A stretch of DNA of 49,292 bases from Conidiobolus incongruus B7586 (Eukaryota). Positions within the stretch are counted from its first letter, which is position 1. Every line of letters starts with the position of its first letter. Below the pieces are notes generated by a model. That model worked only from the letters and a program-made list of their open reading frames with translations. It ran no database searches and was not told the origin of the DNA. This document shows, piece by piece, positions 2,195 through 49,292 of the stretch. The position numbers and the translations under genes were made by a program. The stretch spans positions 1 to 49,292 of the forward strand of contig JNEM01008690.1 in assembly GCA_000697335.1 (NCBI GenBank), read 5' to 3'.

Positions 2195-2867
2195 TTTTTG
2201 ATCTATTAATCTATAAATTGAATCTAATTAACTTAATTTTTTTATAATTTTTGGCACGTTAATTAATCCTATATTAATGATTTACAAAATTTAAAAATTA
2301 TGGGACTTGAAGGATAAAAGTTGGCAAATTGAAATGTATAATTAATGGCTAATTTTATTGTTCAAAAATTATAAAAAATGATTTTATTAATTTCTAAAAT
2401 TGGAATTTTTTTATATTCTAAATTTAGTAAATACTTTTAGATGATTAAAACTTAAATGATGATATTAAAAAAATTAAAATAAGAAATATGATCCAATAAT
2501 ATATATTATTTGAGATAAATAAAAGATAATCAAATCTATTTTTTATTTTTATTTTTATTTTATAGACTTAAACCTTATAATCAAAAATTATGTAATTTTA
2601 ATGATTTAAATAGTATTTTCAACAAAATTGAACATTAATTAAAATGATATAAAATTAATATTCAAAATATCAAAATTGATGAAACATTTTAAAACCAATT
2701 TGCCAAATTGAATCAATGTTAAATTCAGTATAAAAATTAGTACAGTGACTTGAATTCAAAATTTATGAACAAAAATACCAAAGTTATATAAATTAATACA
2801 TTGTTGTAATATATCATCAACATAATAATAAATAACAATTTAATTTGTATTGTAGTACAATCTCAAA

Positions 2868-3722
2868 ATGAGACTATTTAACCAAAAGGAGAAAGAAGTG
2901 GAAAAGAAGGCTCAGTCAGTGAAGGATGCATCGCTAACTGATCTCGAGAAGGGAGGAATCAGTATGGCAATGATCCCTATTGACGAGGAATTATTCGCTG
3001 TAGAGCCTCAAATTGAAGAACGCGTGAGTTGGAGGATGAAGGCACGTGATTTTATTTGCTCGCCGAGGTTTCAATATACGATGTCTGGTTTAGTCGTTCT
3101 GAATTTAGCACTGAGTATCGGAGAATTCGTTATTAGTATTTTTACGGCTAAGGGTACTGTGAAAGAAGATAATGTAGACGAAATCGAGTTTGCTATATTA
3201 TGTACCAATTTAAGTTTATTGAGTTTTTTCGTTTTGGAAGTTATTGTTCGTGCTGGTCTTATAGGTTTTAAAATCTATTTCAAAGATGGTTGGAACATAC
3301 TGGATTTCTTCATAGTGTCGGTATCTTGTTTGATCGAAGCTATGTACCTGGAGAACAGTTTCAAAGAATTGCAAAAGATTGTAACTGTTGCTATGGCTTT
3401 TCGTTTGTGGAACGCACTCCGTATTGTTCACTTGATCAGTCGTACTCTCGATAATCAGGAACAGGCGAGATTAGACGCTGCAAAAGATCAAAATAAAAAA
3501 CTACAGAATGAATTGTCTGAGATTCAGCGCAAGAACGAGCGTTTAAAGAAGGAGAGAGATAGACATCTCAGCAAAACCAAGAAGATGGAAAGAGAGTTGG
3601 AAATCATTCAAATCAAAACGATTAACTCGTTTCAGCAGTCTTGGCAGAAGATTGTACCACTGACAAGTACAGTTCAAATTAAATCAGGCTTAGTCAAAGA
3701 TAAATCAATTACAAAAAAATAA
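2868..3722 (+). CDS. HVCN1: Hv1-like voltage-sensor-domain protein (S1-S4 plus C-terminal coiled coil, no pore domain), intronless, with atypical selectivity residues
   Basis: S1 is LVVLNLALSIGE, S2 is LSFFVLEV, S3 is WNILDFFIVSVSCLIE and S4 is FRLWNALRIVH. A heptad-rich coiled coil follows. This is the Hv1 architecture. Confidence 0.82.
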   Translation: MRLFNQKEKEVEKKAQSVKDASLTDLEKGGISMAMIPIDEELFAVEPQIEERVSWRMKARDFICSPRFQYTMSGLVVLNLALSIGEFVISIFTAKGTVKEDNVDEIEFAILCTNLSLLSFFVLEVIVRAGLIGFKIYFKDGWNILDFFIVSVSCLIEAMYLENSFKELQKIVTVAMAFRLWNALRIVHLISRTLDNQEQARLDAAKDQNKKLQNELSEIQRKNERLKKERDRHLSKTKKMERELEIIQIKTINSFQQSWQKIVPLTSTVQIKSGLVKDKSITKK

Positions 3723-7130: not shown

Positions 7131-10099
7131 GTATAAACCATTATTCTTGTGGGGTTGATGACAAAGCGTATTTAGTTACATATTGTTAAAGGTGGTATGA
7201 TTGCAATTGATCAAATGACAGTATTTCACTATTTAGTAATTTATAATTCTAGTAATTGAAATTTTAAATATGAATTGATAAGGATTAGCAATTAATTAGT
7301 AAGTTATTTGATTTGAATATATTAAAACTAAGAATAGACTTAATAGTCATTGGAGGGTGATAATAATTATATTATTATTTCACTAATTTCAATATCAAAA
7401 ATTTCGAATTGGTAATTTTTCAAATATGTCATTATCTATAGAAGAATTTTCTATTTTGCAAATATTATTTTATGCAAACAAATTAGATAATTTTTAAATT
7501 TATGATAGAAGTATTTTAAATATTAAGGTTCATTGATATTTTGATAATCATATTTGTTGTATAATAATATTATTAATCTACTTTAAACTATCAAATAAAT
7601 GAACTTGTTCTACTAATAAAGTAATCTCAAAAATATTTTGAATCTGTATAGCTCGAATCAAGTTTAACTTTTACAAATCACAGATGTTGTGTTTTATTCC
7701 AAAGGCTTTATAATTTAATATCAAAATCAATAACCCACAGTAGTTATTATTTATTCCTTTGAAATTAAGATTATAGTAATATTTCAAAGTCGATTACTTT
7801 AAATTTGAATTAATATTAAAAATTGAGAAAATGAATAACTTTTATATAATATCAGTATTAAAAATTAATCGATTTAGAAATAATAGGATATTGCTATATA
7901 ATTTAAAGTTAATCATTACATTTTGTCCAAAGTTGATCAAATTTAATCACCCTTATCCAAGTCCTATATAGAGTCCAGAGACTCTAAGGGGATAGGCCTC
8001 AACGCTAATCCTAGGAGATTGGGCTGATTGATTGTTAGATAGCGAAGTAGTGAGTTTCTAATAGTGTTAATATTTTGACCCATTTTTACATGACATCAAA
8101 GACATTTGAAAATCTTGCTTGATCCAAGTTGCATAGGCAAATATCTACAATTACCACATATTTTTCTCATATGATGCTTGATGTAAATGATTACCTTGCA
8201 CCAAAGGCACTTTCTCATTTTATTAAGTTAGCTTTGTTTAAATCTATAATATGAGTATCTTGACATTGCTCTAACATCTTTACTATTAATACATTTGTTT
8301 ATTCTTATCATTATCTTTTGAGTCTTTAATTCATTAATTAAAACAATGTGATTTTGTTCAATAATGAATTTGGTAATTTTTTGTGTACTTTCAGTGTCTC
8401 TGTACTGTTTTTCATCTATTTTTTTAATCTCTGAATATTTTTTATATACAATTTCCTTTTGAGTTTATTTTATATTTAGCTTATTATTAGCAAAAGAAAC
8501 AAAATAAATTCTTTTATATATTATTTTCATGGTTTGATAAATAGATTAATAGGAGAGTGGTTTTTTATAGTAACTTTTATTTAAAATTAAAAGCTAGAAC
8601 TCCTTTTTCAATAATAATAAATCTAAAGGCTTAGCTATTTTATTAATTAGTAATGGCACCAAAATGAAAAAATGATATTTATCAAGCTTTGACTTGTGAA
8701 TTAAATAATTAAAATTATATTTTTCGGTGATGGCTTAATGTATAAAATTAGATCATTATTAAAAAAATAAAATAAAAAAACAACTGCTTATTGTAATATT
8801 AAGAGTAAATAATAATTTATTAAATTGTACTTAATTTTTATATGAATTGAATTTTACGCTATTTTTTAAATACCATTTATTATTTTATCTTTCAATATTG
8901 TAGAGTTTTGTATTCATTGGTTTTCATACTCAAATCAAAATATGTTCAAACATTTGATTTGAGCATTATTTAATTTGAAATAACATAATATTCAGATTCC
9001 ATGATATATTGATTATATATTTATTATGTTACCCCAAACCAATCCACCAATGGCTATCTTTATTTTGCAAGTTTGAATCAGTTTTGTTTTTTCACACTTT
9101 CTTATATGTTTTTCGATTTTGTTAATTTCTTTTTATTTACTTAGCTAAATATAAATTATGATTTTTTTATTATATTATGTATTTTATTATTGTAATAATG
9201 GGTGGTAAATGATATATCATTTTCCTTTAAAAAAGAATTTAAAATTTTTTTGATATATAATAACTATGCTTGTTTTTTTAGAAATAATATTCAAAAATTA
9301 TTTTTATATATATTAAATTTGATCAAATTTAAATATTTGTAATTATATTATGATTTAGTATCTTAAATGATTTTATATTCAACATTCATTTTTTTCCAGG
9401 CTTTAAACTTATTATTTAAAATTTCTAATAATTTAAAATGTCTCAGATAATATGTTGTTTGATATTTCGATATTGTATTTTTCTTAATTAAAAAGTGATT
9501 TAATATTTCAGACTAAATAAATCTTTAATTTACCTCGATTTGATATGGTTCTAGCTTTTCTAACTTTATAATATCTATATTGATATAATGAGATTCCAAA
9601 TTATTTTTTAATTTCAAAGACAAAAAATTACTGAAAATTATTTATATATAACGACGAATAACTATTATATGTTTGATATTATATTATTTAAAATTTAATA
9701 CTATTCAATAATAATATTCAAGCATTTATATTGCAAATGATAATTAATCTAAGATTACCAGTGTTAAAGTTAAACTGAAATTATATTTATTCATCTAATT
9801 TTATATTATTGGCCAATATAGATTCATATTATTACATTATAAAATTTCAAAATTTTTATTATATTCTTATTGTTGAGATTTATAATAAGATGGTTGATAG
9901 TAAATTTTTTAAATAGTTGATTCATTGTATAATATAATCTATCAAATATTATTGCCTTAACTATCCAATCGAGTTGGACCCTTAATTTTGAAATTTAAAA
10001 TTAGGATTCAATAAAACAATAATTAATTTATCTCAATCCCATAACAATTATTTCAATTAAATGTAGTTAAAAATGATAAAGTCTGAAAATAAAAAAACA

Positions 10100-10350
10100 A
10101 GGACCTTAGTAAGTCCTTAAACTGCTAACACCATTCCATACCCCATAATACCATTTACAATCCCCTCCCACTCTTGAGTATACTGTTATTACTTTGTCCC
10201 CAATAACTCCCAATACAAACAAAACCCTTAACTCTGGAACCGTATCTTTGGATGGATCTCACAAGTTACGGATCAATATATTCTGCAAAATATCGCTTTT
10301 ATTCGTCCTTAGGTCTAATAAAAATCTTCTTCATTCATTCAATAAAAAAA
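10100..10350 (+). mobile_element. Probable degenerate non-LTR retrotransposon 3' fragment
   Basis: The strand is C-rich. With one frameshift it reads TLEYTVIT/CPNNS, similar to the TLEHxxxxCP end of LINE zinc knuckles. It ends in AATAAAAAAA at 10341-10350. Confidence 0.3.
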
Positions 10351-11006
10351 CAGTAATTCAAGCATCTTCGCCGACAGCTCAGCAGTTCATAGACGATACA
10401 GCAACGGAGCTTCCGGTAGACATATGGCCCGTCGAACTCTCCGTAAATTACGGTATTTTAAAGCATCCAAGTATTGCATTGTTGTACTTCCACCAGCGTC
10501 AGAATCGAGTATTCGAAGATGAAATTGAATTTAGAATATACACCGTTTTCGCATTGATAGTGTACCGCCACGACGCTGAGGCAAGGACCATGCTGGATGA
10601 GTATCAGGACATTGACTTAACCCCACTGACATGGTTCCGTCTGGAGGACTTCCCTGCACCATCGCGTGACATGTGTGCGCTTCTACATCAAAGGCACAAT
10701 GGCGATTCCTACTGGGCATACTATATTTCCGGATGATGCATTATTGGCGGATATAGACTAAGCCCTCTTTACTATAGCTCAGACCATGCAGTGATCGCGT
10801 CCAAGTACTCGAGTAAGATATCCAGAGAAGTATCTGCGCCATATGCCCTGGATGTATACTGGGAGACTCATCCCCTGAAATGCCAATTTGTATCCAAGTT
10901 CAAGAGCAATAATAAGGAGGGTGCCGCGTTTGAATCTTTGTTTCCAGCTACTCCCACCCCGGATGATCTGGAACATATAGAGTTATTGCTTCGTCTCGAG
11001 ATTTAA
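10351..11006 (+). pseudogene. GC-richer intronless reading frame of unknown function interrupted by one in-frame TGA
   Basis: ORFs 10194-10736 and 10791-11006 share a frame. The 54 nt between them are open (CIIGGYRLSPLYYSSDHA), so TGA 10734-10736 is the only stop. Confidence 0.45.
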
Positions 11007-11694
11007 AAAAATAAAACACAATACAAACAATAATTTTGGATCCAAGAATTAGATTATTAATTGATCATATTTAAATTTAAATGTCAAAATCCATATTGAG
11101 ATCTAATTTAAACATTTGTTACCATATCAATCACTTTAGGTAATTTTGTATTCATTTGTATTATCTTGAAATTTATTTGAATTCATTCTTCATCTATTAT
11201 TTTAAATACAAATCACACAATTTGTTTATTTGATATATAGTAATTTATTCGATCATTTTAAGTTTATTAAAATGATCCTATACTTTCCATCTCATTTTAA
11301 TTCATTTTTGATATATTACAAAATTTTCAATCAATTATGGACATAGCAGAGTGTAAACAATTATCTTCAATCTAATAACTTGTAATTGTGTATTATTTTA
11401 ATATAAGTATTAGATTTTGAGAAATGTTGAAACCTCAATTATAGAATGATATGGTATTATAATTGACATTTATTAATTATAATATATTAATATAAATGAA
11501 TATTCAATCTTAATTAACTTTTAAGTTTTGTTTCAAATTCATAATTCAAAACCGCATTTTATAAATTCAAGTTAAATTTATGATAAATTACTCTAATTAA
11601 TAACTTTTAACCTTTTTAATTTAGAATTCAATTTAATACTGTAATCTTAATATCCCCAATTAAATATATTCAAAATTCTTTTCATCTAACCCTA

Positions 11695-13109
11695 ATGAAT
11701 CTTGTAAATTCTAATACTTCTTTACCACAAATTTTGGTTGAAGTAATTTTTACTAATATATAATTTGATATAATTGTTATTAATTTTAATTTAGGATGAT
11801 GATCTAAATAACAATAGTAATTCTAACCCAAAACGAAAAAACTCTAACAATTCGGAGTGTAAAGTAATTTTCTAAATTAAATTTTGAATAATAATTTGTT
11901 AATATCAATTTAGTCCAAGGGATCCAAATCCAAACAAGGGCGAAGAAAAGTTGACCTCAAAGTAATATAGACAGATTGAAGGGTTATTGTTTGATTTTAA
12001 ACAATTTTTTATTAGGCTATTATTGACTTGGTTAATAATTTTCATTCTGATTCAGACCTTAATTCCAATGTAATTTTTCTTAATTTTATTTTTATTTAGA
12101 GTATTAATTTTAGTTGTTTAGAATAGCTTTGATTCTTCATCAAGGTCTCCTAGTCCATACACTAGACGACAAGTAATCTATCCTCAATTTATATTATAGT
12201 AATTCTATTTGATTATTCAGCGAAACTAACAATCTTTCATTAGCCTTATATTGTACCTAAATGGCCTAATGATCCAGTATTTTAAATTTTAAAAATACCC
12301 AATTTTTAAAATGTAAAATTTATATTTTGATTCTTTAGGAAACAACATCGAGAGTAGAACAAAATATGATAGAAGCTCAACAAAAAAGAATTCCTATTTT
12401 ATTAGTATTTGATTTGAATGGAGTATTGGTAAAGCGCAGTGGAAACAAATCCAAAACAATATTTTTACGCCCTCACATCCATGAACTTGTCGAATTCGCA
12501 ATGAAAAACTTTTACGTGATAACTTGGACAACTGCCAAACCCGTCAACTCGGATAAAATTATCGATGCAGCTTTCGGACCCTATAGGCCTTATCTTTTAA
12601 GCAATTTAACGAGATTACACTGCGAAATTTTAGGTGACTATTATCAAAATCCAGAAACCATTAAAGATTTGACAGTTATCTGGAATCACGAATTTAAAAC
12701 CAATCCCGATGAAATATTGAAAACGTTGCCATCTCCACCTGCTCAAAAAATATTTAAAGATATATATTTGAAAGAAATTAATCAAATACCGGACGAAAGG
12801 ATAAGACAACTCTATTTGGGCATTGACACTAGCTGCAATACTGTCTCATTACAATTCGACACATCCAATACGATATTGATCGATGACTCACCCGAGAAAG
12901 CTAGGAATCAACCCAATAATTACATTCAAGTTCCAGAGTATCAAGGACGCAAATTTAACGATACTGACGAAAGTTTACGCGATCTAAAACTCTATCTAAA
13001 TGATTTGGTGGATTCTTACCGTAAAGAATACAAAACATGCGAAACTGAAGGTATCAAATTTCAATTTTCAGTGGTAGATTATATCAAATCTCATGGTATA
13101 ATTTTTTAA
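11695..13109 (+). CDS. NIF/FCP1-like HAD-superfamily protein (7 exons)
   Basis: Motifs: LLVFDLNGVLV, FLRPHI, VITWTTA, TIKDL..IW, NTILIDDSPEKA..QP.N. Exons: 11695-11742, 11795-11863, 11914-11961, 12016-12069, 12122-12172, 12244-12276, 12339-13109. Confidence 0.85.
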
Positions 13110-13830: not shown

Positions 13831-14293
13831 TTATTGTTGGGTTTGTTCTGGATGAGGTTGCTAAAAATAGTAAAATAAATAAATTTTGAAAAATATAGTG
13901 TGAAAAAATACTTACCTGGGCACTTGGGTCAACACCTTGAGGGTACTGACCACTTCTCATCAACAATTCCTGATCCTTTTCGTAAGCAATCATGAGGGGT
14001 AAAAGAACAACAAAAGCACTTGTACTCAACACCCAACCAGTCTTACCTAAGATTGAGAAAGCGGTGTGAACTCCGTTATAAACAGATGAGAAAGTCTTAG
14101 AAATAGCCAAACGTTGGTTGGGAGGGATAATATCTTTAAGAGCGTAAATTCTGTCCATAAGGGTTTCGTCGTCGAATTCTTCATCATCATCATCATCGGT
14201 GTATTGGTCGTCGTCGGTATACTCTTCTTCGACATCTTCTACGACGACTTTATCGGCTTTTTCGTTGGTTGGAATTTCTTTTAAAATGACCAT
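13831..14293 (-). CDS. TOM22: Mitochondrial import receptor Tom22
   Basis: Acidic N-terminus, DETLMDRIYALKDIIPP, and TM segment GWVLSTSAFVVLLPL. One 3' intron (about 13862-13916) precedes a last exon QPHPEQTQQ*. Confidence 0.93.
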
Positions 14294-14579
14294 TATGAAA
14301 AATTATTAATAATAAATATTAACTTTCTGTAATTAATATTAATTGGCCCCAAATTCAATTAATAATTTAAAACTAAAATTCATTTATCAAAATTATGGGA
14401 TAATATTAATTTTCATAATAATTTGAATTAATAAACCTATAAAATTTTAATTTTTTTTTATAATTTTTAATTTTTAATTTTTGATTATAATATAAAAAAA
14501 ATTAATAAATTTTTTAAATAATATATAGATAAAATTAAATTATAAAAATTATTAGTTATTAAAATAACCTTTAAATATT

Positions 14580-17463
14580 ATGTCGAATGCTATCAAACTC
14601 AAGACTAGGTAATTTCCTTTAAAATCCTGATCATTGAAAAAAAAAATTAATTAAGAAATTAGTTATAAACTAGCAAATTCTATCGATACCATATACACTG
14701 GTGGTACAGTGCAAATAAATTCACTTACAAACAGATTATTCACAACTTTGGGTGAAGATATTATAATATCTGACTTGACAACTGGTCAAAAAATTCAAAC
14801 TCTATCTGGTGTAAGTTTAATATTTAAAAAAGAATAAGGATTAGTGTTGAATTAACGGATTTAGGATTCCGAAGATATTACATGTTTCGCAGTGAACCCT
14901 CAGGGAACTTACTTAGTGAGTGCTAGTAGAAGTTTGCAAGTTCGAATTTGGGATCTAGAGAGTTTTAAGGTGGTTAATACTATTAGAGTAAGTAATAAAA
15001 TTATCTATCCATTGAGTTATTTGATATATTAATAAAAAATTGTAGCTCAGAGATACACCAATCATTGTTATGGCGATTGATCAATCTGGGACTTTAGTAG
15101 CTTTGGGATCGGCAGACAGTACCATTCAAATCTACCACATTACGAAGGGGTATTGCACCCACAATTTTAAACGTCACGGAGGAGTTGTCAGTGCTCTGAA
15201 ATTTTTCACACCTCCCAAGACTAAGGACATGAATCAGATCTGGCTCGCTTCCGGTGCCAACGACTGCAAGATTATCCTGTGGGATTTGAAAACTAGTCAG
15301 CATTTGGCTACCTTCAACCATCATGGATCTGTTATTCGAGGTCTCGACTTCACTCCAGATGGCTCCATTCTGTTAGCGGGTTCTAGAGACAAGACCGTAT
15401 CGCTATGGAATACAAAAACTTTGAAACCTATGAAATCTATCCCACTTTACGAATCTGTCGAAGACGTTGGATTCATTAGATCTAGCGATGATGCAGACGA
15501 AATGCCCACCCAATTCTACACTGGTGGCGAATCTGGACTACTTAAGATCTGGGACCTCGAATCTGGCGAAGAGTTGATCGTCCAAGTGCAAGAGGGTTCT
15601 ACCTCGCACCAAATCACTCAAACCCTCTACTTGAAAGATGTTCAGCAGCTGGTTGCAGTCACTGATGACCACAGTTTGGTCTTCTACTCAGTTGAAGATC
15701 ATTTAGCTAGAGTCAAGCAAATCGTCGGATATAACGAAGAGATTATCGATTTGAAACTGTTGGAATATACCTACAACAATGAAGAGCATTCTCACCTACT
15801 CGTTGCTTCTAACAGTGAGCAATTGAAGGTAATTGATTTGGCTACATCTTGCACTGATCTTTTATTTGGTCACTCCGATATTGTTGTGTCGTTGGCTACC
15901 AATCCCTCAGGTACAGTATTTGCTTCAGGCTCTAAGGATAACACTGCTAGAATATGGAGAGCTAATGTTGGCGAGCAATTGAGGTAAATTTAGTATGCAT
16001 CATTTAAGTTATATTAATATTAATAAGCGTTTTAGTTTCGAATGCTTAGCTGAATGTGTCGGTCACAACGAAGCGGTTGGAGCTATTGCACTTTCTAAAA
16101 AATCCAATGGTCCTCAATATTTAGTCACGGGAAGTGAAGATTTAACTGTGAAATTGTGGGAATACACTGATTATGGTATTTTTAATTATATTAACCATTT
16201 ATTATAATTTCATTAAATTAATTTATTTAGTTGACTCAGACCTCGAAGATACCGAAATCCCTAAACTTCAATCAAAATACACCTTCAAGGCTCACGACAA
16301 AGCCATCAATTGCGTAACATTCGCCCCCAATGACAAGATCTTTGCCACTGCATCCCAGGACAAGACCGTCAAGGTTTGGAACACCGCTGATGGTTCCTTG
16401 TTAGGCACATGTACCGGTCACAAGCGAGGTGTTTGGTCCGTCGAATTCTCTCCAGTAGAGCAAATCATGGTAACCAGTTCTGGTGATAAAACTGTTAAGA
16501 TCTGGTCCCTCAAGGACTTCTCATGTCTCAAAACCTTCGAAGGCCACACCAACACCGTATTGCGCGCCAGCTTCCTTTCCAGCGGCTTACAAATCGTGTC
16601 CTGTGGTGCTGACGGTCTGGTGAAGTTGTGGACTATTAAGAATAATGAATGTGTAGCTACTTTGGACGGTCATACCGAAAAAGTAATAATTGATTCAAGA
16701 TTTTACAATTTTGATATTAATTAATTTTTAGATTTGGTGTCTTGCAACCTCCAAAGACGAACAATTCCTAGTGACGGGAGGTGCCGATTCTGTCATCAAT
16801 CTGTGGGAGGATACTACGGAATCAGATCAGCAAGCCAAGCGCGAGGAGGAAGAAGCTAAGATTATTCAGTAAGTTTGATCCTAACCCAATACCATTTCAT
16901 TCGTTAATATTTTGAATTTTAGAAATCAAGAGCTATCAAATTTCATGGTACAAAAGGACTATAAGAATGCTATCAAATTGGCTATTAAATTAAATCACCC
17001 ATTTCAATTACTCAATATCCTTTATAAAGTGCTGGAAAACTCATTCACCAAGGACAGTATTACAGGTAGTTTAGATATTGACGAAATCTTTTCCAAATTA
17101 CCTCAAGATCAGGTAACATCTACAATTATATCATATGATAAGGAAATATTAAAATATTATTTAGTTGCAACAAATATTGAAATATATCTGTGATTGGAAT
17201 ACCAATTTCAAACATTCCCCAATTGCCCAAAATCTTTTACATATTATTTTAAAATCTTACCACCCCTCTGTACTTAATGAATTAAATGGAATTCAAGAGG
17301 TAATATATGCTATTCCTCGAATGTATATTTGTTAATTAACTGATTATTTTAGGTTTTTAAGAGTTTAATTCCATATACCGAGAGACATTATAATAAGTTG
17401 GATGATCAAATCACTCAAACTTATTTACTGGATTATACATTGGCTCAAATGGATTTAATTTAA
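14580..17463 (+). CDS. UTP13: U3 snoRNP WD40 protein Utp13/TBL3, multi-exon
   Basis: N-terminus MSNAIKLKTS..IYTGG. Internal motifs: CTHNFKRHGGVV, QIVGYNEEIID, AHDKAINCV, GHKRGVWSVEFSP, QELSN, WNTN. C-terminus LIPYTERHY..LLDYTLAQMD. Confidence 0.95.
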
Positions 17464-18859: not shown

Positions 18860-20700
18860 CTAATCATAGCGTTAAATTGGCTATTGTTCTGATTAAAGAA
18901 TGCTGAAAGAAATACCATAATTCATCATTAAAACAAAAATTTCTTTTACAATGAGCTAATATTGCACTAAAGTCCAATATTATTTAGATAGCGATATCAA
19001 AAATATTAAAGAACTCGATCATTACCTTGGCCTTAGAAATTAACAAAATATGAAAATCAAGATTTTAGACATTCTATAATGGGGGAACTAATTCAGTAGT
19101 TTTATTATAATTCATAAAAGAGTATAACTGGCTCCTTCTTAAATTTTGTTTACTCTTTTTCTAAAGAAATATTACCCAAGTGGCATTTTTAAATTTTCAA
19201 TTATATGGCTTGGAGAATTCAAGCTTCAATACTATCTAAAATCTTATCAACAATATGATGAATGATCTTCAATTCCTTTTCAAAAGATTATTTTTGAATT
19301 ACCAAAAATTATAACCAAAATTAGTCTAAATACTTAGGATGAAATTTATAACATGGATGAAATTATAGTTTTACAGTACACTAGTAAGCATATTTAATTT
19401 AATTTCTTACTATTCTATGATAATAATAATTAGAATTTATATATATTATTTTAGGGAATTTTTATATCTATTAAATATTATTATTTTTAATTTGTAACAG
19501 TGGTTAGTGGTAAATTTAGTATAATCAAGAGGAACACTTAAATTAGTGATGACTTAGTCAAATTAATATATTGGTGAGTTTATTTAGAAACCAAATATAT
19601 AAGTTAGTAGAAATATATTAGATATTAATATGGTATTAATAGTAAGTCTCAAATTTTAAATAATAATGATTAATAACAAATCAAATAATAATAAACATAT
19701 ACTAAGAGGAAAAGAGAAAAACCATTTTTATTAGCTTAATTAATGGTATTTATCTAATTTAATGGACTTTTAACTGAATTTTAGATATAAACTGCTTAAT
19801 CAATTAAAGGTTATAAATATGGGACTATATATTATAAATTTGAGAACCAGTCTCTTAATGTAATTAATATGATATAATTCAAAAATATCATGGAATTTTT
19901 GAATATTATAATAAATCTAATGTTAATATATTATATTTTTAAAAATTATTTTATTATGATAATTTAGAAAGATATATTTAATAAATTAATTTTTACTATA
20001 CTTGATAATTAGAAAGATAAATTTTATTAATAATTGTTTAGTTTTTTCTTTTAATTTTAAATATTATTTCATCAATTATTAATTGATTTATATTTATAAA
20101 TGTGAAATATTTACTTAGTTATTCAATATTTTGCTGCAGAAGTTCAAAAGAAAGCGTGTGTGCCTATTATGGTGTGTTATGATATTTCAAGATCTTACAA
20201 GCTCTCACTTTGGATAATTGAAAAATCTTGGAACCCAATTTGTTTTAGAAAATACAAAAAGAAATCTAAAGAATGTATACTATGCATGCAAAAAGGTTTG
20301 GTTAACCTACTCGATTTTTGTCAGCTGGTTATATTAGTTTGGTAGTCTAATGGTTAGTAAGAATGTATATCTCATTCTCGCTAACTGTTCTATCCATTCA
20401 AACATAATACAGATTTATGAAAAGATTGATCTGAGAATTACTAAATTGATATTCTTACCTCCGAAAAGTACTGCATTATTGCAGCCCTTCGATTCTCGAA
20501 TTAGATGCATATTTAAGAGGTAGTACGAATACTATTTGAATTTAAAATACATAGAAATTATTGGAAAATATTAAAACAATTGAAGCGAATTATAATATTA
20601 TATTGCTTGAAGGAATCCAGCGTTCCGAGAAAGTATGAGTTAAAGAAATCAATAGTATAACAATTCATAACTGTTTTAAACATGAGAATATATATTTTGA
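18860..20700 (+). mobile_element. Degenerate pogo/Tigger (CENP-B HTH + DDE_1) transposase, split by an internal insertion
   Basis: FKFSIIWL (about 19190, cf. FKFSNGWL). EIYNMDE (19341-19361). KLSLWIIEKSWNPICFRK (about 20200, cf. KLPLWVIGKSKNPRCFK). LILANCSIH (20371, cf. LLLDNCSAH). FLPPKSTALLQPFD (about 20453). TIHNCFKH (about 20660). Stops and frameshifts are present. Confidence 0.85.
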
Positions 20701-28737: not shown

Positions 28738-31229
28738 AATGTTTTCCCCACAGTCAAAAAATTTGAATTTAGACTCTTTATTAATACTTAGAGTCTTGTT
28801 AGTTCTTTCTGATTATTTAATAATCTAATCAATATACACTTTGCCTCTTAATTCCATATTTTTTAATTTTATTTTATTTTATTTTATTTTATCTATTATA
28901 CATTGTTTATTCATATGAGTTGATACCGTTTATCACACATTCCAAAATTTAATATTATATTTTTTATTATGTATAGTTGATATACTTAAATCTATAATTC
29001 CTTTTCTCTATAGAATATTTCCATTAGATATGCTTATTCAACTATTTTTGATGATAATCTTCAATATTTTCGCAGTAACAATATTAAATAGAAATATTAG
29101 AATATTCTATTAATTATTCCATATGTATGGTTATATTTAGAAGAATATTAATAATACAAATTTTTTTATCCATTTTTATTTTTATAAAAGTTCTCAATAT
29201 TTTTAATTCGAATGAAGAATATTTTTAGAAATTTTACTTTAGATAAAAATTTTAATCTGAAATTGAATCGAATATTATCCAATAATAATACTTATGAATC
29301 CTTATAGACTAATTAGGTAATTTCCGAACTAATTTAATCGTTTGTTTTGAAATTTAATCATATCTAACCCTACTTGTTTGTTATATTATATATTAGCTTT
29401 ATAAATATATAATATATGGTAATTATTTATATTTTAAACAAACATTAGTATTATTGATACCTGAAAAATTACTAAACAATTGAAAGCTAAAATATTTCAA
29501 CTAACATTTGAAAATTGAATCCATGAAAAAATAAATTTATAATTAATAATTTACAATAATTGGATATTTGATAATTAGGATGGAGAGCATTAATATAGTT
29601 CACCATTATACTGATGCATTAATCAAGTTAGGTCTAAAAATTTAATTTTCCTATATTTTTATCAAATTGTTGATATTATTTATTCCATTTGGAAACTGAT
29701 TATTAATATTTTGTTGAGATCTTCATAACTATTGATTGGACTTTGTTTTAATGAATCAGATATTTTATCAAATGATTAGAAGAATATATTGAGTATAATT
29801 GATATTATAAATTATTTTACAAGGAGATACTATCTTAATATTAATGTTTTGTATGATTTGAAATCACAGCTAAAATGAATAGTTAACTTATTTACAATCA
29901 TTTATTCTCTTAATATAAGTTATATACTTCATTACCATATTTTAATTTAAAATGAGAATTTATTCATTTAATACAATCCTGTAATATCTTTATTTACCCA
30001 ATTCTTGTTTTAAATATTATAATAAATCCTTTTTAATACAGAACTTGGATATAAATTCATAATATTTTACTTAAATTAAATGAATTAAAAAACGTATCTA
30101 TTTTTCTATTCTCTAAAAGTTGCTGTAAATCTTGATAAGATCAACGCATAGATCAACTCCAAAAACTATTTATTATCCCCACATAATATTTTGCAATTTT
30201 CAAATCTTAAATCCTCAAACTAGAATCATGGATTTCGGGTAATTTTTATATTGATACCAGCATCTCTAAAAAATAAATATGGTAATACTTAATATGAAAA
30301 TATTGAACTAGATCATTACAAATGAAACTGATAATACATTTTTGTTTGAATGTTACTTATATCTACATTTCGTAAAACTGCTCAAGATCTACAAAGAGTA
30401 AAGCTATTCAAATTTTAAAATTATATGGATGGTCAGCATTTTTAAAAGAAAAACATATGGTTATCTAATATATGCTCTATTTGATATATGAATTAATTTC
30501 TTTGATACTCCAAGTATAGTCTTGGGTTATAAATAATCATTTTATAAATTTTTGCATATTTCTTCAATACATTTTATATTTAAATTATTTATTTCCTATC
30601 ATTCAATAAAATTAACTTAAATTAGACAGGATATAATTAGAAAATAATATAATATAATACATTATTAACATTAAATTCATAATATAATCATTACAATGAG
30701 AATTATAATAGATACTTAAATCAAACATTTGAATCGTATCCTTTAATAAAATTTTATCAAAAAATTACCATTAATTATTTAATTTATTATTTTAAAACTT
30801 GAAAAAATTATTCAAATCTAATGAATAATTATCTATTTTTTTGATCTTTAGTAAATTAAAAAATATATTAAAATCACATTTTTAGTTTAATTATATAATT
30901 ATATTATATATACTAAAATCCATATTTGGTTTACTTAATCAAAATACAAAATATATATTTTACCATGTAAATAAAATTTAAATAATAACTGGAGTAATTA
31001 TCACTAAACAAAATTTATTAATTTATTTTTTTATATCATTGTAATTAGTTAATTTTATATTCTCTTAAATAATCTTTTATTAAAAATGAAAGCAAAATAT
31101 TGTTTTAATGGAATTTTTTTAAATTAATTATTATTACATAATATTTTATTTAATAACAAATTATAATTATTAAATGAAATTAAAATAATATGTAATTTTC
31201 TTATTTAGTTTTTAAATATAGTTTTATTA

Positions 31230-32460
31230 ATAATAAGTAATAAATTTTTTAATTTCTGATCCTTTAAACATATTATACATTTTGAAAGATTATATATATA
31301 TATAATATATATAGGAAAATAAATATTTTTAAACTATATATATATATTCAATTTTAATTATTTTTTATTAAAATATTTTGATTTTAAAATTTAAACTTAA
31401 ATTTAATTATATTTAAAATTGATAATAATTATCAAAAGGTTTTTATTTTTATATTTTTAAAATTTAACTTAAAACTTTTTAAAATTATTGAAAATTTATA
31501 AACAATTTATAAAGATGATATTTTATTTAAAACTACTATATATCATTAGATTTGTGATTTTAAAGATAAAAGGGACATTATTTAAAATTTACTAAAATTT
31601 AAAAAATTAATTTCTATTGTTATTTTTTTACTTATTAATAAAGTAAAAAAATATATTAAGAAACCTCTTTTTATTTTTATTCAAGAATTATTAAAACAAT
31701 TTAATATTAATTATATAAGTATATTATATATAATTAAGTTTAAATTTAATTTAATTAATAAGAATATAAAATATTTATTTTATAATTTAACAAAAGCTTA
31801 AAAAAATTAAAGTAATTATAGTTAAATTAAACTTATTAAGGTATAATTAAAAACAAAGGTTTTTACAACAGATACTTATAATTAATAAGTTTTAAATTCT
31901 TCTATATAATCTTTTAATTAAAAATAAAACAAGATGTTAAGTTAAATTAATCTTTTTTATAAATTCTAATGAATAAATATTTTAAATATAAGCAAATATT
32001 AATTATTGTAATAGATTATAATAATAAATAATTTTTTTTATTTAATACCCAAAGAGAAATTAATTAATAGTAAATTATATATTATTTTTTTAAATAAAAT
32101 AATTTTTAAATGGTTTTCTTAATATAAATTAAAGATACTTATTATTTTACATGATAATCATAAAATATATAAAATTAAAACTCTAAAAGATTTTTTATAT
32201 AAAAAAAACTAAAGCAAATTACCACATCTAATATATTTATTTGATTATAACCTATGTAATTATAATTGTTTTAGATAGTTAAAAAATTAGCTTATAAGAA
32301 AAAAATTCTTGTAAATAAATTAAATTAGTTTATAAAATATTAAATTTTAGTTTTTAATAAAAAGAATTATTTTTTAAATATTAGAAGCTTATTAAAAATA
32401 TAAAAAAAGTTATTAATAATAAAAAAAGCTATTAATTTTATATTATTTATTTATTTATTT
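31230..32460 (+). mobile_element. Full-length DD34D mariner transposase relic (former ORF about 31409-32435), heavily C>T/G>A mutated
   Basis: N-terminal HTH remnant. ILIINKF*I (cf. IVTGDESWI). IILHDN (32141-32158). LPHLIYLFDYNLCNY (cf. LPHPPYSPDL.PCDY). Exactly 34 codons separate the 2nd and 3rd catalytic positions. The former ORF spans about 342 codons. Confidence 0.85.
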
Positions 32461-33262
32461 ATTTAATATTAATTTCAAAATTATACCATTATTTAATTTC
32501 TATATTAATAATAACTATTATTTGATATTATTATTGAAATTAAAAATACTTATTATTTGTTATAATAATTATAAGATTTTCTTAAAAAAATAAATAGCAG
32601 AAATTATTATATTTAATAAAAATATTAATAAATTATAACTTAAGTAATTATAATTACTTTGGGTGATTAATAAATATACTTATAAAAAAGAAAATTTTTG
32701 CAAATAAATTTAATTATAATATAAAAAATTGATATTTAAGTGTTATAAATTTTCCAAATATATCAAAAGGTTATTAAAAATAAAAAATAATATTAATTTA
32801 ATTTAATTTTACTCTTATAAATCATATATTAAAAATTATATGAAAAATTAATTTTAAAATTATATTATTGAATTAAATTATTTACATAATATTATAATTA
32901 ACACATTTATATCTTAAATAAAACATATTTTGAATAATAAATTATTATTTAATTATATTATTGAATTATTTCAAAAATTGAAAATTCATATACATTAATC
33001 AATAGTCAATAATCATTTCTTCAAAACAACCAAAAAATTTAAAAATATTATCAAAATATATTATCTTAATACTTGATTAATACTAAATAGCTTATTTATT
33101 CTATATATATATTGTAATACATAAAACTAAATTCAATGAATATTGTAACAATTTTATTAGAGCAAGATAAAGAAAAATGGTAGAGAATACAAGAGAATTT
33201 AAACTTATCAAATGGGTTGAATAATTTTGATTAATGAATCTTACAGTGGTGATAATTATAAC

Positions 33263-36200
33263 CTAATCCGAATCAACCTCCACATATTTCATAGGAGAGT
33301 GGGATGTGGTTTTGGATTTGCGAGCTGATGGCCTAAATTAAAGATTAATAATCGACGAAATAATGATTATATGTTAAATGAACTTACGATTTAGCATCCG
33401 AATCGTGTGGAAGGGACCTCTTACCAGCCCTAGGCGACTTGGGCGATTTGGGAGATCTTGGCGATCTTGGAGATTTCGGAGACCTTGGAGAACGAGGCGA
33501 GCGGGGGGATTTGGGTGCCAAACTAAAATCACCTGGGAATTCCTTGGGATCTAGTGGGGGTGCCATGACACGCGTCTGGTCAGTTGGGAAGAACTCTTGG
33601 GGTAAGAAACTATGGTTAGCAATTGTGGACATCTTGGCTGGATTGGTAAGATGTCTATACATGTCGGCAGGTAGAGAAATGGGTCCTGTGTAAGGCTGAA
33701 TGAGCCAGTGGGAAGTGAGTTTGAAATGTTTAATAGTATACTGCATCAAATCACTTAATGCGTAGATGCAGTCGGATCGTTCTGGACTGTTCAAATCGTA
33801 GGTGTTCTTCAATCTGGAAATACATTCAAAGATGTATGAAATATTATCAGGTGTGGCAATAATTTCTAGGAAGAATTCCAAATAGCGTTGAAACTGTAGT
33901 AAATCTTCACCATCTCTGGAGAAATCTGGATGATGGGCAAGAAGGTAAATGAGACGAGGTGTAGTGGATTCCAAGTGATGAGCGACACGGTTTTGAGCCT
34001 TATTCCTATCAAGTTGTCTCTTGAGAGCGACTGAAACGGTATCGCGCAATTCAATTTCAGGATCGTGAGCTGTTAAGAATAGAATGGAGGCATACTTGGG
34101 GTTGAGACTTTGAATGCTCAAGTATTTAATCAACTTCGTGACGAAGCCTTGACGTACTTCGAAAATTTCATCTTGCATAAAATAGGACAATTTGGTGAAT
34201 TGAAGGGGTGCAATATAGGATTGGAGATGCGATTTACATGCAAGTTTGACAATGGAGTTAATGGCAGCTAATCTCAAGTTGGCTCTGAATGATTTGGGCA
34301 TTTCATCAGTAAGAGCACCTTCTTTGTCTAAGATATCCCACAATAAATTCAAAACGGGTTTACAGAGAGCCACCTTAATGTCATCATCAGCAAATGACAA
34401 TGCTCTGTTCACCAAGACTTTCAAACCTAAGACCTTAGCTTCCAATTCAGAGTCAATTTGATCAAATTCTTCGTAGGAAGAAGAATCATAAGAACTTTTC
34501 AAATTCTTATATAAGAGATCACTCACTACAAACTTGACAAGCTGCTCATAAACATCTTCTAAATCATCGGGTGAATGGATAGCAATCTGTTGAAAAGCTT
34601 TGAGAGCTGAGTTTAAGTATTGAGAGCTGGGTTTCAAATTCTTGACAAGTTGTGAAACCAAATCAGGGACACAAATGAGGTAGTTGGAATTCAAACAAAG
34701 GATACAAGCAGCATATTTGGATTGTAAAACGGTACCCTTAAGACAGAGATCCTTCAATTTCTTAATGGATAAATCATCCAATTTAAGTTCTCTAGGATGA
34801 GATTTGACATGTTTGGCCAAAGCCTTAAGACGGTCAATTTGCTCGGACTTGAACAAGTCGATAGAGGAATCGATCAAGAAACTGGTGAGCAAATTTAAGT
34901 GAACATCAAACAGATTGGGGAACCAATTGGCCAATTGGTCCAATATTTTTTGGGCAGTGCTGGATTTCGTAGCGTCGGTTGCGTTCTTTTTAGATCTGGT
35001 GCTCTTTCCCGACTCGACGATTTCAAATAAAAATGGAAGAATGGTGTGATTGACTAATTTGAGCGAGACAGTATTGAGAATCATCTTGAAAGTATTAACC
35101 AACTCGGAATTCAACTGTTCAATTCGTTTCATTGCCTTTCCATAACAATCTACAATAGTATCATAATCAGAAGTAAAGCTAATAACCTTCAAAAAGAGTT
35201 CATTCAATCTCTTATCGGGAGATTGAGAATACTTTACCAAGTTACTATAATGTATAGTTGTATCATTATACTTTTCTACTAAGAGTTTAGCTGATCCAAG
35301 GATAGATTTCTCAATATCTTCAGTGGTATTGGTCTTAGAACTCCAAGCTCTTTGCTCATTAATATTGGTGATATACCTGTGGAAATGTTTAATAGCGATG
35401 GATTGTGTCTTCATCATGGAGTAGAATGCGGTGAGTCCTTTGTCATTCAAGTATGAGCATACGTTCAATATCCTTTGAGTACGATCCGATGCATTGCGAT
35501 CAGAAGAGAATACCTTCTCTCTCAAAACTTGAGCGGCGTGATAGTCACCATCATATACATAGAAAAGTCCTAAAATAGCATTGGGTAATTTGGAAAATTT
35601 GGAAATGGCTTGAGGATCTCCATAAACGATATCATGGTAAGCTTTATCATAGAGATCTGATAATGTGTTGAGAGCTGCAATTCTAGTCTCAAGCTAATCA
35701 AATAATAAGCATATAAACTAAAGTATATATTTATATAGTTACCTTTTTATCTTTGCAACGAAGAGATAAACCTTCAAGTAATTTGGGATCAACCAATTGT
35801 TTGACCAAGTCGTAGCCGATGAGCCCAATAACTTTACAAACGGCAGTTCTGACCTTGTCATCGGGATCTTGAACCTTGGTAATTAAACCCTCCTGAACTT
35901 GATTGAGGTCACTGCTATTATTCAAGAAAAATGTAATGCTCTGTTCAACCCAAGCAACTCTCACTTGGGAAGTTTTATCATTCATTCTTTGTAACCAAAT
36001 CTTCCACACAGCTCCATAAGTTGATGATAAGTGGCCAGGCTGGGAGAACATGTCACCCAAAGCTCTAGTGGCTAAAGTACGAAGTTCTGTATTATCATAA
36101 GATAACTCTTGTTCTAAGAGAGGAATGACATTGAGCAAGACACTGGGAGCAGCTCTATTAATATTAACAATAATACGGTGAGCAGTTTTGAGATCGATAC

Positions 36201-37097
36201 TCTTTTCGGGATCTGCTTCATGAGGTTTAGCAGAAGCCAAAAGGATGTCACTAAAATATTGGCAGAAATACCTCTGGAGACGATCGCTAGAAGTGAGACA
36301 GAGCTCTTTAGCCAAATAATATGAGTAAGGGTATTGCTGACGATTTTTATCGGTAAAGCACAATAAAATCAATTCGATAGCCTTAGTGGGAACGTTGTTG
36401 GAATTATCGACTAATGACGATAGGATGGCCGCTGCACTTGATAGAATTTCATTAGATTGATCTTTCCTAAAATTCAAAAATGAGTAAAACATATTGTAAT
36501 AGGGTAAATCAAGTACTTGGTAAGTGAAAAAAAGATCTCAAAAGTCTGAGTCAATAGCTGTGTAGCATTATTCAAATCCAACATCAAAATAGCACTCTTA
36601 TAAGTACCCAACGAATTCAACAAGTAAGTATCGAAGCTAGCCGTCTCGGAATTGGATGTGCCCAACAATTTGAACTGATTGAAAAACAATTTAAAAATCG
36701 CCTAAAAATCATATTAATATGGATGACATCATCAATTTTCTATAAGTTACTCCAAGTTCAGTTTTATTATAGGGAGAATCAGGTGCATATAATTTTAGAA
36801 CATCAGCGATACAACACGCTGTAATAGCTTTGACCAGAGGGTTTTTATGCTCCATTAAACTGGGCGACTTTAACTGTTTAATAACACCATTAAGACTTGA
36901 AATGTCGAATTGATCACTCTGTTTAATTAGTCCTAACTCTTCATGTAATTTCTAAAACATTTTGTTAGTAATTGAATTACATGTGGCTAATGTAAATTGG
37001 ATACTGTTAATCTTTTGACAATTTCACCATAAGCAATATTACGACCGCCAGTAGCTACTAGTACTTGGTCAAATTGTAATCGGTTCGTACCAGACAT
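33263..37097 (-). CDS. PDS5: Cohesin-associated HEAT protein Pds5, multi-exon
   Basis: Motifs: ACCIADVLKLYAPDSPY, VLLNVIPLLEQEL, WLQRMNDK..VR, DPDDKVR, LRLAA..IVKLA, QDEIFEVRQGFV.KL, PRLIYLLAHHPDF. ATG is at 37097 and TAG at 33265-33263. Confidence 0.95.
33429..33509 (-). repeat. Coding tandem repeat (SP[R/K])x9 in the Pds5 C-terminal tail
   Basis: SPRSPRSPRSPKSPRSPRSPKSPKSPR, 81 nt, with varied synonymous codons. Confidence 0.95.
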
Positions 37098-45935: not shown

Positions 45936-47495
45936 ATGACAGCAATATCCGACTCAAATTCTAATAATAATAACAATAATAATATTAATTCAAATAATAC
46001 TGAATATAATACTGTAGCTGGAAATTCAAATGCTTTAAAAAGAAATACTCCTAGTACAATTGAAAATGTAATTAATTTTTTTTAAAAAAAATTCATGTTT
46101 TATTAGCTAATTATGTTTGATAGGGAAATGATAAATCTTCTAAACTATCTAAGAGCGACAACATTAACCCTTTGAAACAAGAGATTATTAAATTACCTCT
46201 TTGGGATATTCGAGATCCTAAAGAAATCCAAAGTAAGTTTAACATAGATCATTATTATAATTGCTAACAACATTTAGACCAAAATGTCGACCAAAATTCC
46301 GTAAAGAATCCAATAGAATTTGCTTTAGTTAAAATATCCAGTAAACCAAGCTCTGATTACCCAAATGAAGCTAGCTATATTGTAATTTTTATCAATTACA
46401 ACTAATATAAAGCTTCTTACTAATTTTCATGTTTAGCCTGAAAGGATTATTGCAATGAAAAATTTGGATAATACTGAGTCTTATTTAGTCAAATGGAAGA
46501 ATAAGCACGAAGATGAGAGCTTTTGGGTACCTGCATCCGATTTAGAAAAGTTTAAAGATATTTTAGATTGCTTTTTATTGTCTATTACATGTGGCAGAAG
46601 AATGAATACAGCATTTACAATGGGATCTCAAAAGGGATCAATTGCAACTCTTGAACCGAAAATATCGATTTTTATGAATTTAATTAATCATGATACCGGT
46701 TATCCTATTTCAATTATCAATACTGTTGACGATTCAGATCCTCCAAATTTTATCTATACCAATAATTTTCTTTTACATGAAGATATTAGAGAAAAAGTTT
46801 TAACCGACAAAACTAGATTGATTGATGGCTGTGCTTGCGCGATATGTCCTCCTATCAATCAGAAATCCAAATGTGATTGTGTTGAGTATACTGGTACTAT
46901 TGCATATAGTAATAAGGGTTTAGTACTGATGGAATCTAGAAACCAAATCTATGAATGCAATTCCAAATGTACATGTGCTAAAATTACACCTTGCCTTTGC
47001 CGCAATCGCATCACCCAAAGGAAGAGAAAATATAAACTTCAAATATATAAAACAACTAACAAGGGTTGGGCAGTTCGCACCTTGGAAGACATTCCTAAAG
47101 GAGCATTCATTTCAATATACACAGGTTTGGTGATGTCGTTTAATCGTGCTAATCAACTTGGTAAGTCCTATGAAACTCAAGGATTTTCCTATTTGTTTGA
47201 CTTGGATGGAGATACTATGCATGATTCTGACCCCATTTATACAGTTGATGCTACAAACTATGGAAATTTCAGTCGCTTCATCAATCATTCATGTGATCCC
47301 AATCTATTCATCCTATCAGTCTTTACTGAACATCAAGATATTCATAATATTGCACTCTTCGCCAAACGTGACATCAATGCATTTGAAGAGCTTTGCTACG
47401 ATTATACTGGAGGTAAACCACAAGACGAAAACTTTGATACAGGCATCCCTTGCCATTGTGGTGTTCCAAATTGTAGAAAAATATTAATGATGTAA
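45936..47495 (+). CDS. clr4: Clr4/SUV39-family histone H3K9 methyltransferase (chromodomain, pre-SET, SET, post-SET)
   Basis: Chromodomain-like SYIPERII..YLVKW..W.P..DL, Cys-rich pre-SET with IYECNSKC, KGWAVRTLE, YLFDLD, RFINHSCDPN, EELCYDY, post-SET CHCGVPNCR. Three 5' introns. Confidence 0.9.
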
Positions 47496-48649: not shown

Positions 48650-49292
48650 TAAGAAATGGCAAATTTTTTAATTTTTCTGATCTTTCAAACATATTATAAG
48701 TTTTGAAAAGTTATTTATATATAAAATAAATAGGAGAATAGATATTTTCAATCTATATATATTTATATATATATTCAATTATAATTATTTTTTATTAAAA
48801 TATTTTAATTTTAAAATTTATAGTTAAATTTTATTATATTTAAACTAAATAGTAATTATCAAAAGGCTTCTATTTTTATATCTCTAAAACTTAACTATAA
48901 ACCTACTAAAATTATCTAAGATTTATAAAAAACTTATAAAGATGATGTTTTAATTAAAACTACCATATATCTTTAAATTTGTTATTTTAAAATTAAAAAG
49001 GTCATTATATAAAATTTACTAAAATCTAAAAAATTGATTTTTACTATTATTTTTTCATTTATTAATAAAATAAAGAAAAATATTAATAAACATCTTTTAT
49101 TTTTTAGTTGAAGGATTATTAAAGTAATTTAATATTAATTATATAAGCATATTTTATATATTTAAGTTTAAACTTAAATTTATTAATAAGAATATAAAAT
49201 AAATACCTTATAATTTAACAAAAGCTTAAAAGAAAATTAAAATAATTATAGCTAAACTAAACTTATTAAAATATAATTAAAAAATAAAGTTT
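48650..49292 (+). mobile_element. Second copy of the mariner relic, truncated by the window end
   Basis: Direct repeat of about 31230-31865. It translates YQKASIFISLKLNYKPTKII*DL*KTYKDDVLIKTTIYL*I...NLLKSKKL and *IPYNLTKA*K (49200, cf. WVPHELTEAQK). Confidence 0.85.

Follow-up and report, generated by a model that had tools for sequence, protein, structure and literature searches.

Repeat-induced point mutation (RIP), described in Neurospora crassa and other Pezizomycotina and dependent there on the RID and DIM-2/DIM-5 pathways, changes C:G to T:A on both strands of repeats only, close to saturation. Its marks are TAA and TAG codons in place of Trp and Gln codons, depletion of CpA and a positive composite RIP index; RID, sexual timing and dependence on pairing are features of the process. 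The transposons of Botrytis, Sclerotinia and Magnaporthe, which are ascomycetes with RID, carry a mixed CpA and CpT signature (PMC4352252). Repeats of Pucciniomycotina undergo C>T decay without RID until CpG is exhausted, and this CpG/TpCpG hypermutation was ascribed to DNMT1/Masc2 methylation followed by deamination (PMC3318451 and PMC4352252).

For the Entomophthorales, Stajich 2024 (PMC11105155) gives a RIP index of 24.2% in Zoophthora radicans and of 2.4-5.7% in three relatives. These values are dinucleotide indices taken in windows, for which the paper urges caution and calls for further study; Tc1/mariner elements are abundant, DNA_methylase genes are present, and methyltransferases with a RID-like layout "cannot be interpreted as homologs of RID". 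A kingdom-wide screen describes the RIP signature as unique to ascomycetes (PMC12543289), another source finds RIP-proficient taxa almost exclusively among ascomycetes (bioRxiv 2025.06.16.659975), and RID homologues are confined to Dikarya except for one in a chytrid, which was likely acquired from bacteria (PMC5751038). 5mC and DIM-2/DNMT1 are reported from early-diverging fungi in PMC11258239, PMC7862722 and PMC13297926: Phycomyces has repeat-located 5mC in CG and CHH, the repeats of one zoopagomycete also carry 5mC (PMC11258239), and DIM-2 methylates mainly non-CG sites, with CpT preferred (PMC13297926). Within the literature outside subscription papers, we found no study that used alignments to examine C>T hypermutation in the transposons of Entomophthoromycotina.

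Identity of the element, its family and its host

The window analysed here is a single stretch of DNA of 49,292 nucleotides. Its mariner features are as follows.

31231 to 32470, + strand: mariner copy 1, about 1.24 kb, 10.2% GC, 0 CpG; 3' end between 32470 and 32510
31424 to 32435, + strand: dead transposase frame of 336 codons with four frameshifts and 16 stops inside it; the HTH region precedes the DD34D domain
31884 to 31895, + strand: first catalytic motif DE[S/T]W, now NKF*
32150 to 32263, + strand: HDN motif to HPxYSPDxxPCDY motif with D34D spacing; family variants give back D, H, W, S, P, D
48650 to 49292, + strand: 5' half of mariner copy 2, truncated where the window ends; 85.9% identity to copy 1 over 630 columns, 12.0% GC, 0 CpG
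30855 to 31230, + strand: older mariner, left piece; matches 31679-32067 at 74.5% identity, 10.6% GC, score 168.5 vs shuffle maximum 48.5
32470 to 32797, + strand: older mariner, right piece; 32510-32797 matches 32098-32417 at 77.9%, 10.0% GC, score 136.5 vs shuffle maximum 48.5

A sequence-only reading had proposed a full-length DD34D mariner at 31230-32460, and profile searches agreed with it. A degenerate mariner motif served to collect 111 metagenome loci, and the 51 of their ORFs with at least 150 residues formed the mariner profile. Against it, copy 1 scored 46.3 bits (E 1.7e-13), its HTH part matching ahead of its catalytic part; the maximum in 1000 codon shuffles was 4.1 bits. An independent search of 1.84 billion representatives with copy 1 gave 10 matches at E≤0.001 (best E 4.6e-8), and of the five of these relatives that were scanned, 4 had Pfam Transposase_1 and all 5 had DDE_3. 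Relatedness was distant, with just 22-35% identity in the best stretch of the nearest library matches. When stop-masked copy 1 was compared with PDB by phmmer (177,635 sequences), all 6 matches at E≤10 were Mos1 or SETMAR (best E 0.0097). Copy 1 resembles these DD34D mariners in its HTH region, three-part catalytic motif, 34-residue spacing and length of about 1.25 kb, and differs from them in being, to judge by its frame, dead. No Pfam family was matched by the stop-masked frame at E≤10, none of 3,085 candidates by a word-based protein search with copy 1, and no plasmid or phage by tblastn; the mariner motif scan of viral contigs gave 0. The nearest relatives, P0128, P0129, P0133 and L041, have a shortened loop before the HDN motif in common with copy 1 and may be a distinct mariner subgroup.

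The frame had been described as a nearly colinear ORF of about 342 codons with few indels. It has 336 codons and four frameshifts, the switches lying near 31800, 31950, 32032 and 32309 on a profile of nine library relatives. Its 17 stops comprise 13 TAA and 4 TAG, the last being terminal, and no start codon was recovered. Most of the proposed motif changes were reproduced. AAT AAG TTT TAA at 31884 aligned to the first catalytic motif, as DESW changed to NKF*; HLIYLFDYNLCNY at 32225 is the copy 1 counterpart of HP.YSPD..PCDY; and 34 residues separate the Asp at 32153 from the third-Asp position at 32258, so that the D-34-D spacing is intact, with Asn now standing in place of the first and the third catalytic Asp. 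Conversion of Trp codons to stops was seen at 31547 (TAG), 31893 and 32210 (both TAA), but TGG is retained once, at 32111. The change of RSGRP to KSKKL had been assigned to the wrong copy: KSKKL is the reading of copy 2 at 48.6 kb, and copy 1 reads KFKKL. By its motifs and frame, 31231-32470 is a dead DD34D mariner.

The 5' end of copy 1 is common to copy 2, and a depth step and loose ends occur at 31242 and 32510. The two ends of copy 1 match each other only by a short low-complexity stretch; TA is present at both but is ubiquitous in 90% AT DNA, and the 648 pairs from an inverted-repeat search were swamped by chance AT-rich pairs. Since the AT-rich flanks are the two halves of an older mariner, copy 1 was inserted inside that older element. 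Leakage of RIP into the flanks was considered and rejected for the same reason. Raised depth at 32482-32886 lies over the right piece of the older mariner; its 5' part was not found (score 35.5 vs shuffle maximum 48), and it had no protein-profile match. None of 154 tile-strand scores indicated a further mariner copy in the window. Copy 2 is about 1.2 kb from a gene of the Clr4/DIM-5 type.

The locus was present in four runs of one sample; runs X5-X7, with almost no words in common, were left out. Per run, 8,879-11,717 contigs aligned to the 2.4 kb at 80% likeness. Summed depth within the element was 3,400-71,000 in 15 of 16 bins and 147-223 in the remaining one, compared with 25-580 in the outer bins and about 17-42 for single-copy contigs in the deeper runs; summed contig depth is not copy number, and read depths are biased to sequences at least 80% like copy 1. 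The family is thus dispersed and multicopy, with three copies within the window plus contigs in every run, and these depths suggest tens to many hundreds of related copies in the host.

Three host genes were used.

14661 to 17454, + strand: UTP13 gene, taxonomy marker and source of 8 of the 12 control introns
33384 to 36948, - strand: PDS5 gene, from which control codon sites and 4 of the control introns were taken
46437 to 47495, + strand: Chromo + Pre-SET + SET gene, intronless-looking, 352 codons; Clr4/DIM-5-type H3K9 methyltransferase by domain layout

The best two UTP13 matches were Massospora and Entomophthora, and Dikarya first appeared at row 110 among the 120 matches listed. In a quick maximum-likelihood tree of one part of the gene (44 rows, the two Dikarya rows being long branches), the window was sister to Massospora plus Entomophthora (SH-aLRT 90, not starred). 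PDS5 had 25-28% identity to its three matches, two of them Mortierella. Three host frames had no exact counterpart in the sequence collection. The host is likely an Entomophthoromycotina fungus (Zoopagomycota) outside the Massospora-Entomophthora pair. On the UTP13 placement it is not an ascomycete, which bears out the suggestion of an apparently non-Dikarya host and disposes of an ascomycete with canonical RIP. The third gene makes it likely that a heterochromatin writer is present in the host; the presence of a gene says nothing of its action on mariners. Other features of the window were a tandem SPR/SPK repeat at the PDS5 C-terminus (33382-33693), a 195-codon stop-free frame (10149-10736, + strand) with no Pfam match in the richest-GC 500 bases of the window (10501-11000, 46%), and an Ion_trans protein of 288 codons (2856-3722, + strand) with a C-terminal coiled-coil-like stretch, which presumably resembles a voltage-gated proton channel.

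Direction, extent and tempo of base change

Base changes in copy 1 were polarised at conserved columns, namely those without variation among its three closest full-length relatives, which were found independently of the search motif; 9 columns from a domain match lying out of order were left out. The catalytic domain provided 38 columns with 29 obligate C/G positions, of which 9 were kept and 18 had undergone transitions; of the other two, one was C>A/G>T and the other C<>G. Of its 39 obligate A/T positions, 37 were kept, 2 showed A<>T and none a transition. The invariant columns of the catalytic domain therefore show the directional C:G>T:A change claimed from the sequence alone, with 18 transitions vs 2 transversions. 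Across the 28 columns of the N-terminal half, the 21 obligate C/G positions gave 11 transitions, 7 transversions to A/T, 1 C<>G and 2 kept, and 26 of 30 obligate A/T positions were kept; the C>T bias is weaker in this half, where the relatives are more distant. Another column count gave 34 transitions and 10 transversions at 58 C/G positions, with the HPxYSPD..PCDY columns preset by the search motif.

Family contigs gave a second polarisation. At positions 32110-32340, alternative letters at a share of at least 8% comprised 38 transitions and 9 transversions (run X1; 40 of 50 rows listed). C/G alleles give back His at 32168, Trp at 32212, Ser at 32238, Pro at 32240, Asp at 32258, Gln at 32276 and 32288, and Gly at 32297. 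Because these alleles restore conserved mariner residues, C/G is the ancestral state. The G allele at 32258 (66-76% of depth) encodes Asp, so the third catalytic residue is Asp in the family; the catalytic Asp at 32153 is lost in 29-40% of depth. Derived alleles made up about 10-80% of depth at the 28 tabulated sites. Private T>C or A>G changes in copy 1 were found at 2 sites among those listed (32159 and 32278, about 99%; 137 A/T positions). Over the 2.4 kb in run X1, at a share of at least 1%, A>G and T>C occurred at 203 places vs 22 for A>C and T>G; there were also 117 A<>T places, some of which are probably misalignment in 90% AT DNA. Between copies 1 and 2 there were 26 C/T and 26 G/A differences, so the strands are affected about equally, and the three mariner copies retain different C/G subsets. 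These findings indicate that the C:G>T:A change is directional in the mariner copies.

Mariner DNA had 10.7% GC over 2,589 bases. The spacers adjoining the mariner block had 18.1% and 20.6% GC, the 12 control introns 17.8% GC with 4 CpG, and fourfold sites 37.8% GC (of 1,140); GC content steps sharply at the repeat edges. The introns were chosen by lowest GC, and the intron comparison is therefore conservative. The element had been called more AT-rich than its neighbouring spacers; this applies to the true spacers at 18-21%, and not to the immediate flanks, which are older mariner at 10-11% GC. Single-copy DNA with the same C>T excess would have spoken for simple drift. Introns and spacers, at 18-21% GC vs 10.7%, do not bear this out, and measured against introns, spacers and codons the C>T change within the window is confined to repeat DNA. 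Patches 14351-14600 and 19851-20100 have 6.5-11% GC and no mariner alignment; the former is just upstream of UTP13, in the only non-element window with a positive RIP index (0.05). Such patches could be promoter DNA or relics of other repeats. With two non-mariner 200-base patches at 6.5-8.5% GC, low GC alone is not diagnostic.

Drift was simulated under an HKY model (equilibrium 10% or 17.8%, kappa 2-16) until 65% of C/G was gone. Under the model, the pair should be 0.42-0.67 identical and end at 16-22% GC, with 13-41% of the A/T columns showing A<>T; the observed values were 0.86, 10-12% and 4.9%, respectively. Plain AT drift does not fit the mariner copies.

Between copies 1 and 2 there are 52 transitions, 26 A<>T, 11 transversions of other kinds and 5 indels, and the transversions and indels show that the two copies are old. 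Ti/Tv was 1.4 for the copy pair (52:37), 1.85 for the family at a share of at least 1% and 4.2 at a share of at least 8%; saturation masks transitions in these ratios. In a strand-symmetric fit, the C>T hazard of 0.14-0.66 per site exceeded that of A<>T (about 0.02) 7- to 30-fold. Dense methylation and spontaneous deamination could reach such a gap over long times, and it is also compatible with RIP bursts followed by ageing. A uniform star model placed the ancestor of copies 1 and 2 at 11-18% GC, and 26-34% fitted badly. Since a low-GC common ancestor is required, part of the loss was shared or inherited, or fell at hot sites. Transversion dimorphisms at 32174, 32183, 32242 and 32287 point to subfamilies within the mariner family.

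Sequence context of the changes

CpG was absent from the 2,589 bases of mariner DNA (7.4 expected), compared with 69 vs 116 expected in the background; these are small numbers. Among surviving C, the CpA:CpT ratio was 39:74 in copy 1 and 20:49 in copy 2, compared with 46:23 in the introns and 1241:929 in AT-rich tiles (element vs tiles, p 7e-6). The older mariner (35:28) was background-like, unlike the two younger copies. TpA/ApT was 1.09-1.12 in copies 1 and 2, and of 97 windows scored for the composite RIP index 3 were positive: two lay on the element (0.21 and 0.41) and one at 14001 (0.05).

A strong CpA preference was not found: CpA is depleted, yet CpT and CpC are heavily changed and CpG is gone. 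Copies 1 and 2 differ at 32 of 49 CpT sites and at 12 of 21 CpA sites (p 0.59). Conserved Pro, Gly, His, Trp and Gln codons lost C/G in CpA, CpT and CpC. At the sites that copy 1 has lost, derived letters had a mean share among the family contigs of 0.52 for CpA (7 sites), 0.42 for CpT (11) and 0.27 for CpC (3); these small numbers suggest the order CpG, CpA, CpT, CpC. Retention did not depend on the 5' base (0.55-0.60 whichever of the four it was), and TpC was slightly depleted (50:53 vs 1222:875, p 0.053). All four contexts CpG, CpA, CpT and CpC are changed in the mariners. The claim of a context broader than CpA thus stands on TCT>TTT, CC>TT and GG>AA; of the examples given for it, CCA>CTA is itself a CpA change. 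At fourfold sites in ten coding frames, C/(C+T) was 0.58 before A vs 0.29-0.36 before other bases; genes avoid TpA, the opposite of the repeats.

The mariner decay lacks the strong CpA preference of RIP and cannot be filed as RIP. It is like RIP of Pezizomycotina in its both-strand, near-saturating C:G>T:A change limited to repeats, its TAA and TAG codons, its CpA depletion and its positive composite index; it is unlike it in the zoopagomycete host, the change of all four contexts, the near equality of CpT and CpA, and the many transversions and indels. RIP is defined by enzyme, timing and pairing, and the present case is known from DNA sequence. The decay resembles that of Pucciniomycotina in the exhaustion of CpG, but the mariners here are not CpG-limited. 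The mixed non-CpG context is shared with Botrytis, Sclerotinia and Magnaporthe; in this host, RID is not expected from the published surveys. The Entomophthorales signal of PMC11105155 is the closest, being in the same direction and likely from the same order. That signal came from window indices, whereas the changes here are polarised by conserved residues and copy alleles, and the present host branches off outside Massospora plus Entomophthora.

Explanations and their meaning

The explanation that we favour, with confidence about evenly balanced, is that all-context, repeat-targeted cytosine methylation followed by slow deamination killed a high-copy mariner family; we infer the methylation, the enzyme and the timing. 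Repeats would be silenced in H3K9-methylated chromatin, where an enzyme of the DNMT1/DIM-2 class with loose context would methylate their cytosines in all dinucleotides. Methylated C would then deaminate to T gradually, over many generations and not in one step. The outcome would be that of RIP, the irreversible death of a transposon family and AT-rich relics, and premeiotic pairing would not be required as a trigger. Against the methylation reading, CpA depletion and the positive composite RIP index fit RIP equally, and 5mC is described as scarce in Zoopagomycota (PMC11258239).

A true RIP-type defence would recognise duplicated DNA by its homology, during a sexual stage or when nuclei fuse, and mutate it in bursts by a non-RID methyltransferase with relaxed context, the transversions and indels being later neutral ageing. 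Loss near saturation in a frame that is largely kept, the depleted CpA together with the TpA/ApT ratio of copies 1 and 2, the sharp GC step at the repeat edges and the many sites at intermediate frequency all suit it. The background-like CpA:CpT of the oldest copy also looks as if mutation had ceased after divergence, and PMC11105155 offers the 24.2% index in Z. radicans as well as domain architectures like that of RID in three species of Entomophthorales. However, the Ti/Tv of the copy pair is below the criterion of Ti/Tv > 2 given in PMC4352252, CpT varies between copies as much as CpA, and the surveys place RID homologues in Dikarya apart from the one likely bacterial transfer (PMC5751038) and the signature in ascomycetes only (PMC12543289). 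We regard such a defence as unlikely. The related proposal that Entomophthoromycotina have a RIP of their own, which would be homology-triggered, RID-independent and nearly context-free and would drive repeats below neutral GC, appears doubtful to the same degree.

Slightly less probable still is a genome-wide C>T-biased neutral mutation with an equilibrium near or below 10% GC, from which introns, spacers and codons are held up by selection or biased conversion; in a variant, decayed masters were amplified in trans. The AT-rich genome (26.8% in the window) and the non-mariner patches at 6.5-8.5% GC are in its favour, and the loss that the copies have in common, with the subfamilies suggested by transversion dimorphisms, would suit bias or masters. 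It is opposed by the introns, with 17.8% GC, CpA twice CpT and 4 CpG; by the fourfold sites, with 37.8% GC and C/(C+T) of 0.58 before A; by the HKY runs, which at kappa 2-16 miss both identity and end GC; by the rarity of T>C gains in copy 1, far under what an 18% equilibrium needs; and by the different C/G retained in the three copies. Editing of transposon DNA at excision or repair by an AID/APOBEC-like cytidine deaminase, without methylation, would accord with the loose context and the slight TpC depletion but is very improbable given the about equal change of both strands, the lack of a 5' context effect and the complete absence of CpG.

Whichever mechanism acted, the mariner decay is well supported as repeat-targeted C>T hypermutation outside Dikarya, in a context broader than that of RIP or CpG decay. 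The sequence-only reading had called the defence undescribed; this goes too far, because PMC11105155 already has RIP indices for Entomophthorales and candidate RID-like methyltransferases. To these published indices the present analysis adds alignment-level evidence and the broad context: the polarised changes are evidence that a fungus related to the Entomophthorales destroys a transposon family through C>T change targeted at repeats, whatever the context. Where context is loose and the background AT-rich, the composite index is weak (0.2-0.45) and k-mers show little contrast, and standard screens could therefore miss such systems. A high-copy family in a culturable group provides a test case for the question of whether RIP or dense methylation outside CG is older than Dikarya. 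If Entomophthoromycotina do have a RIP of their own, RIP would be older than Dikarya or would have arisen twice, and it could work without a dikaryotic premeiotic stage.
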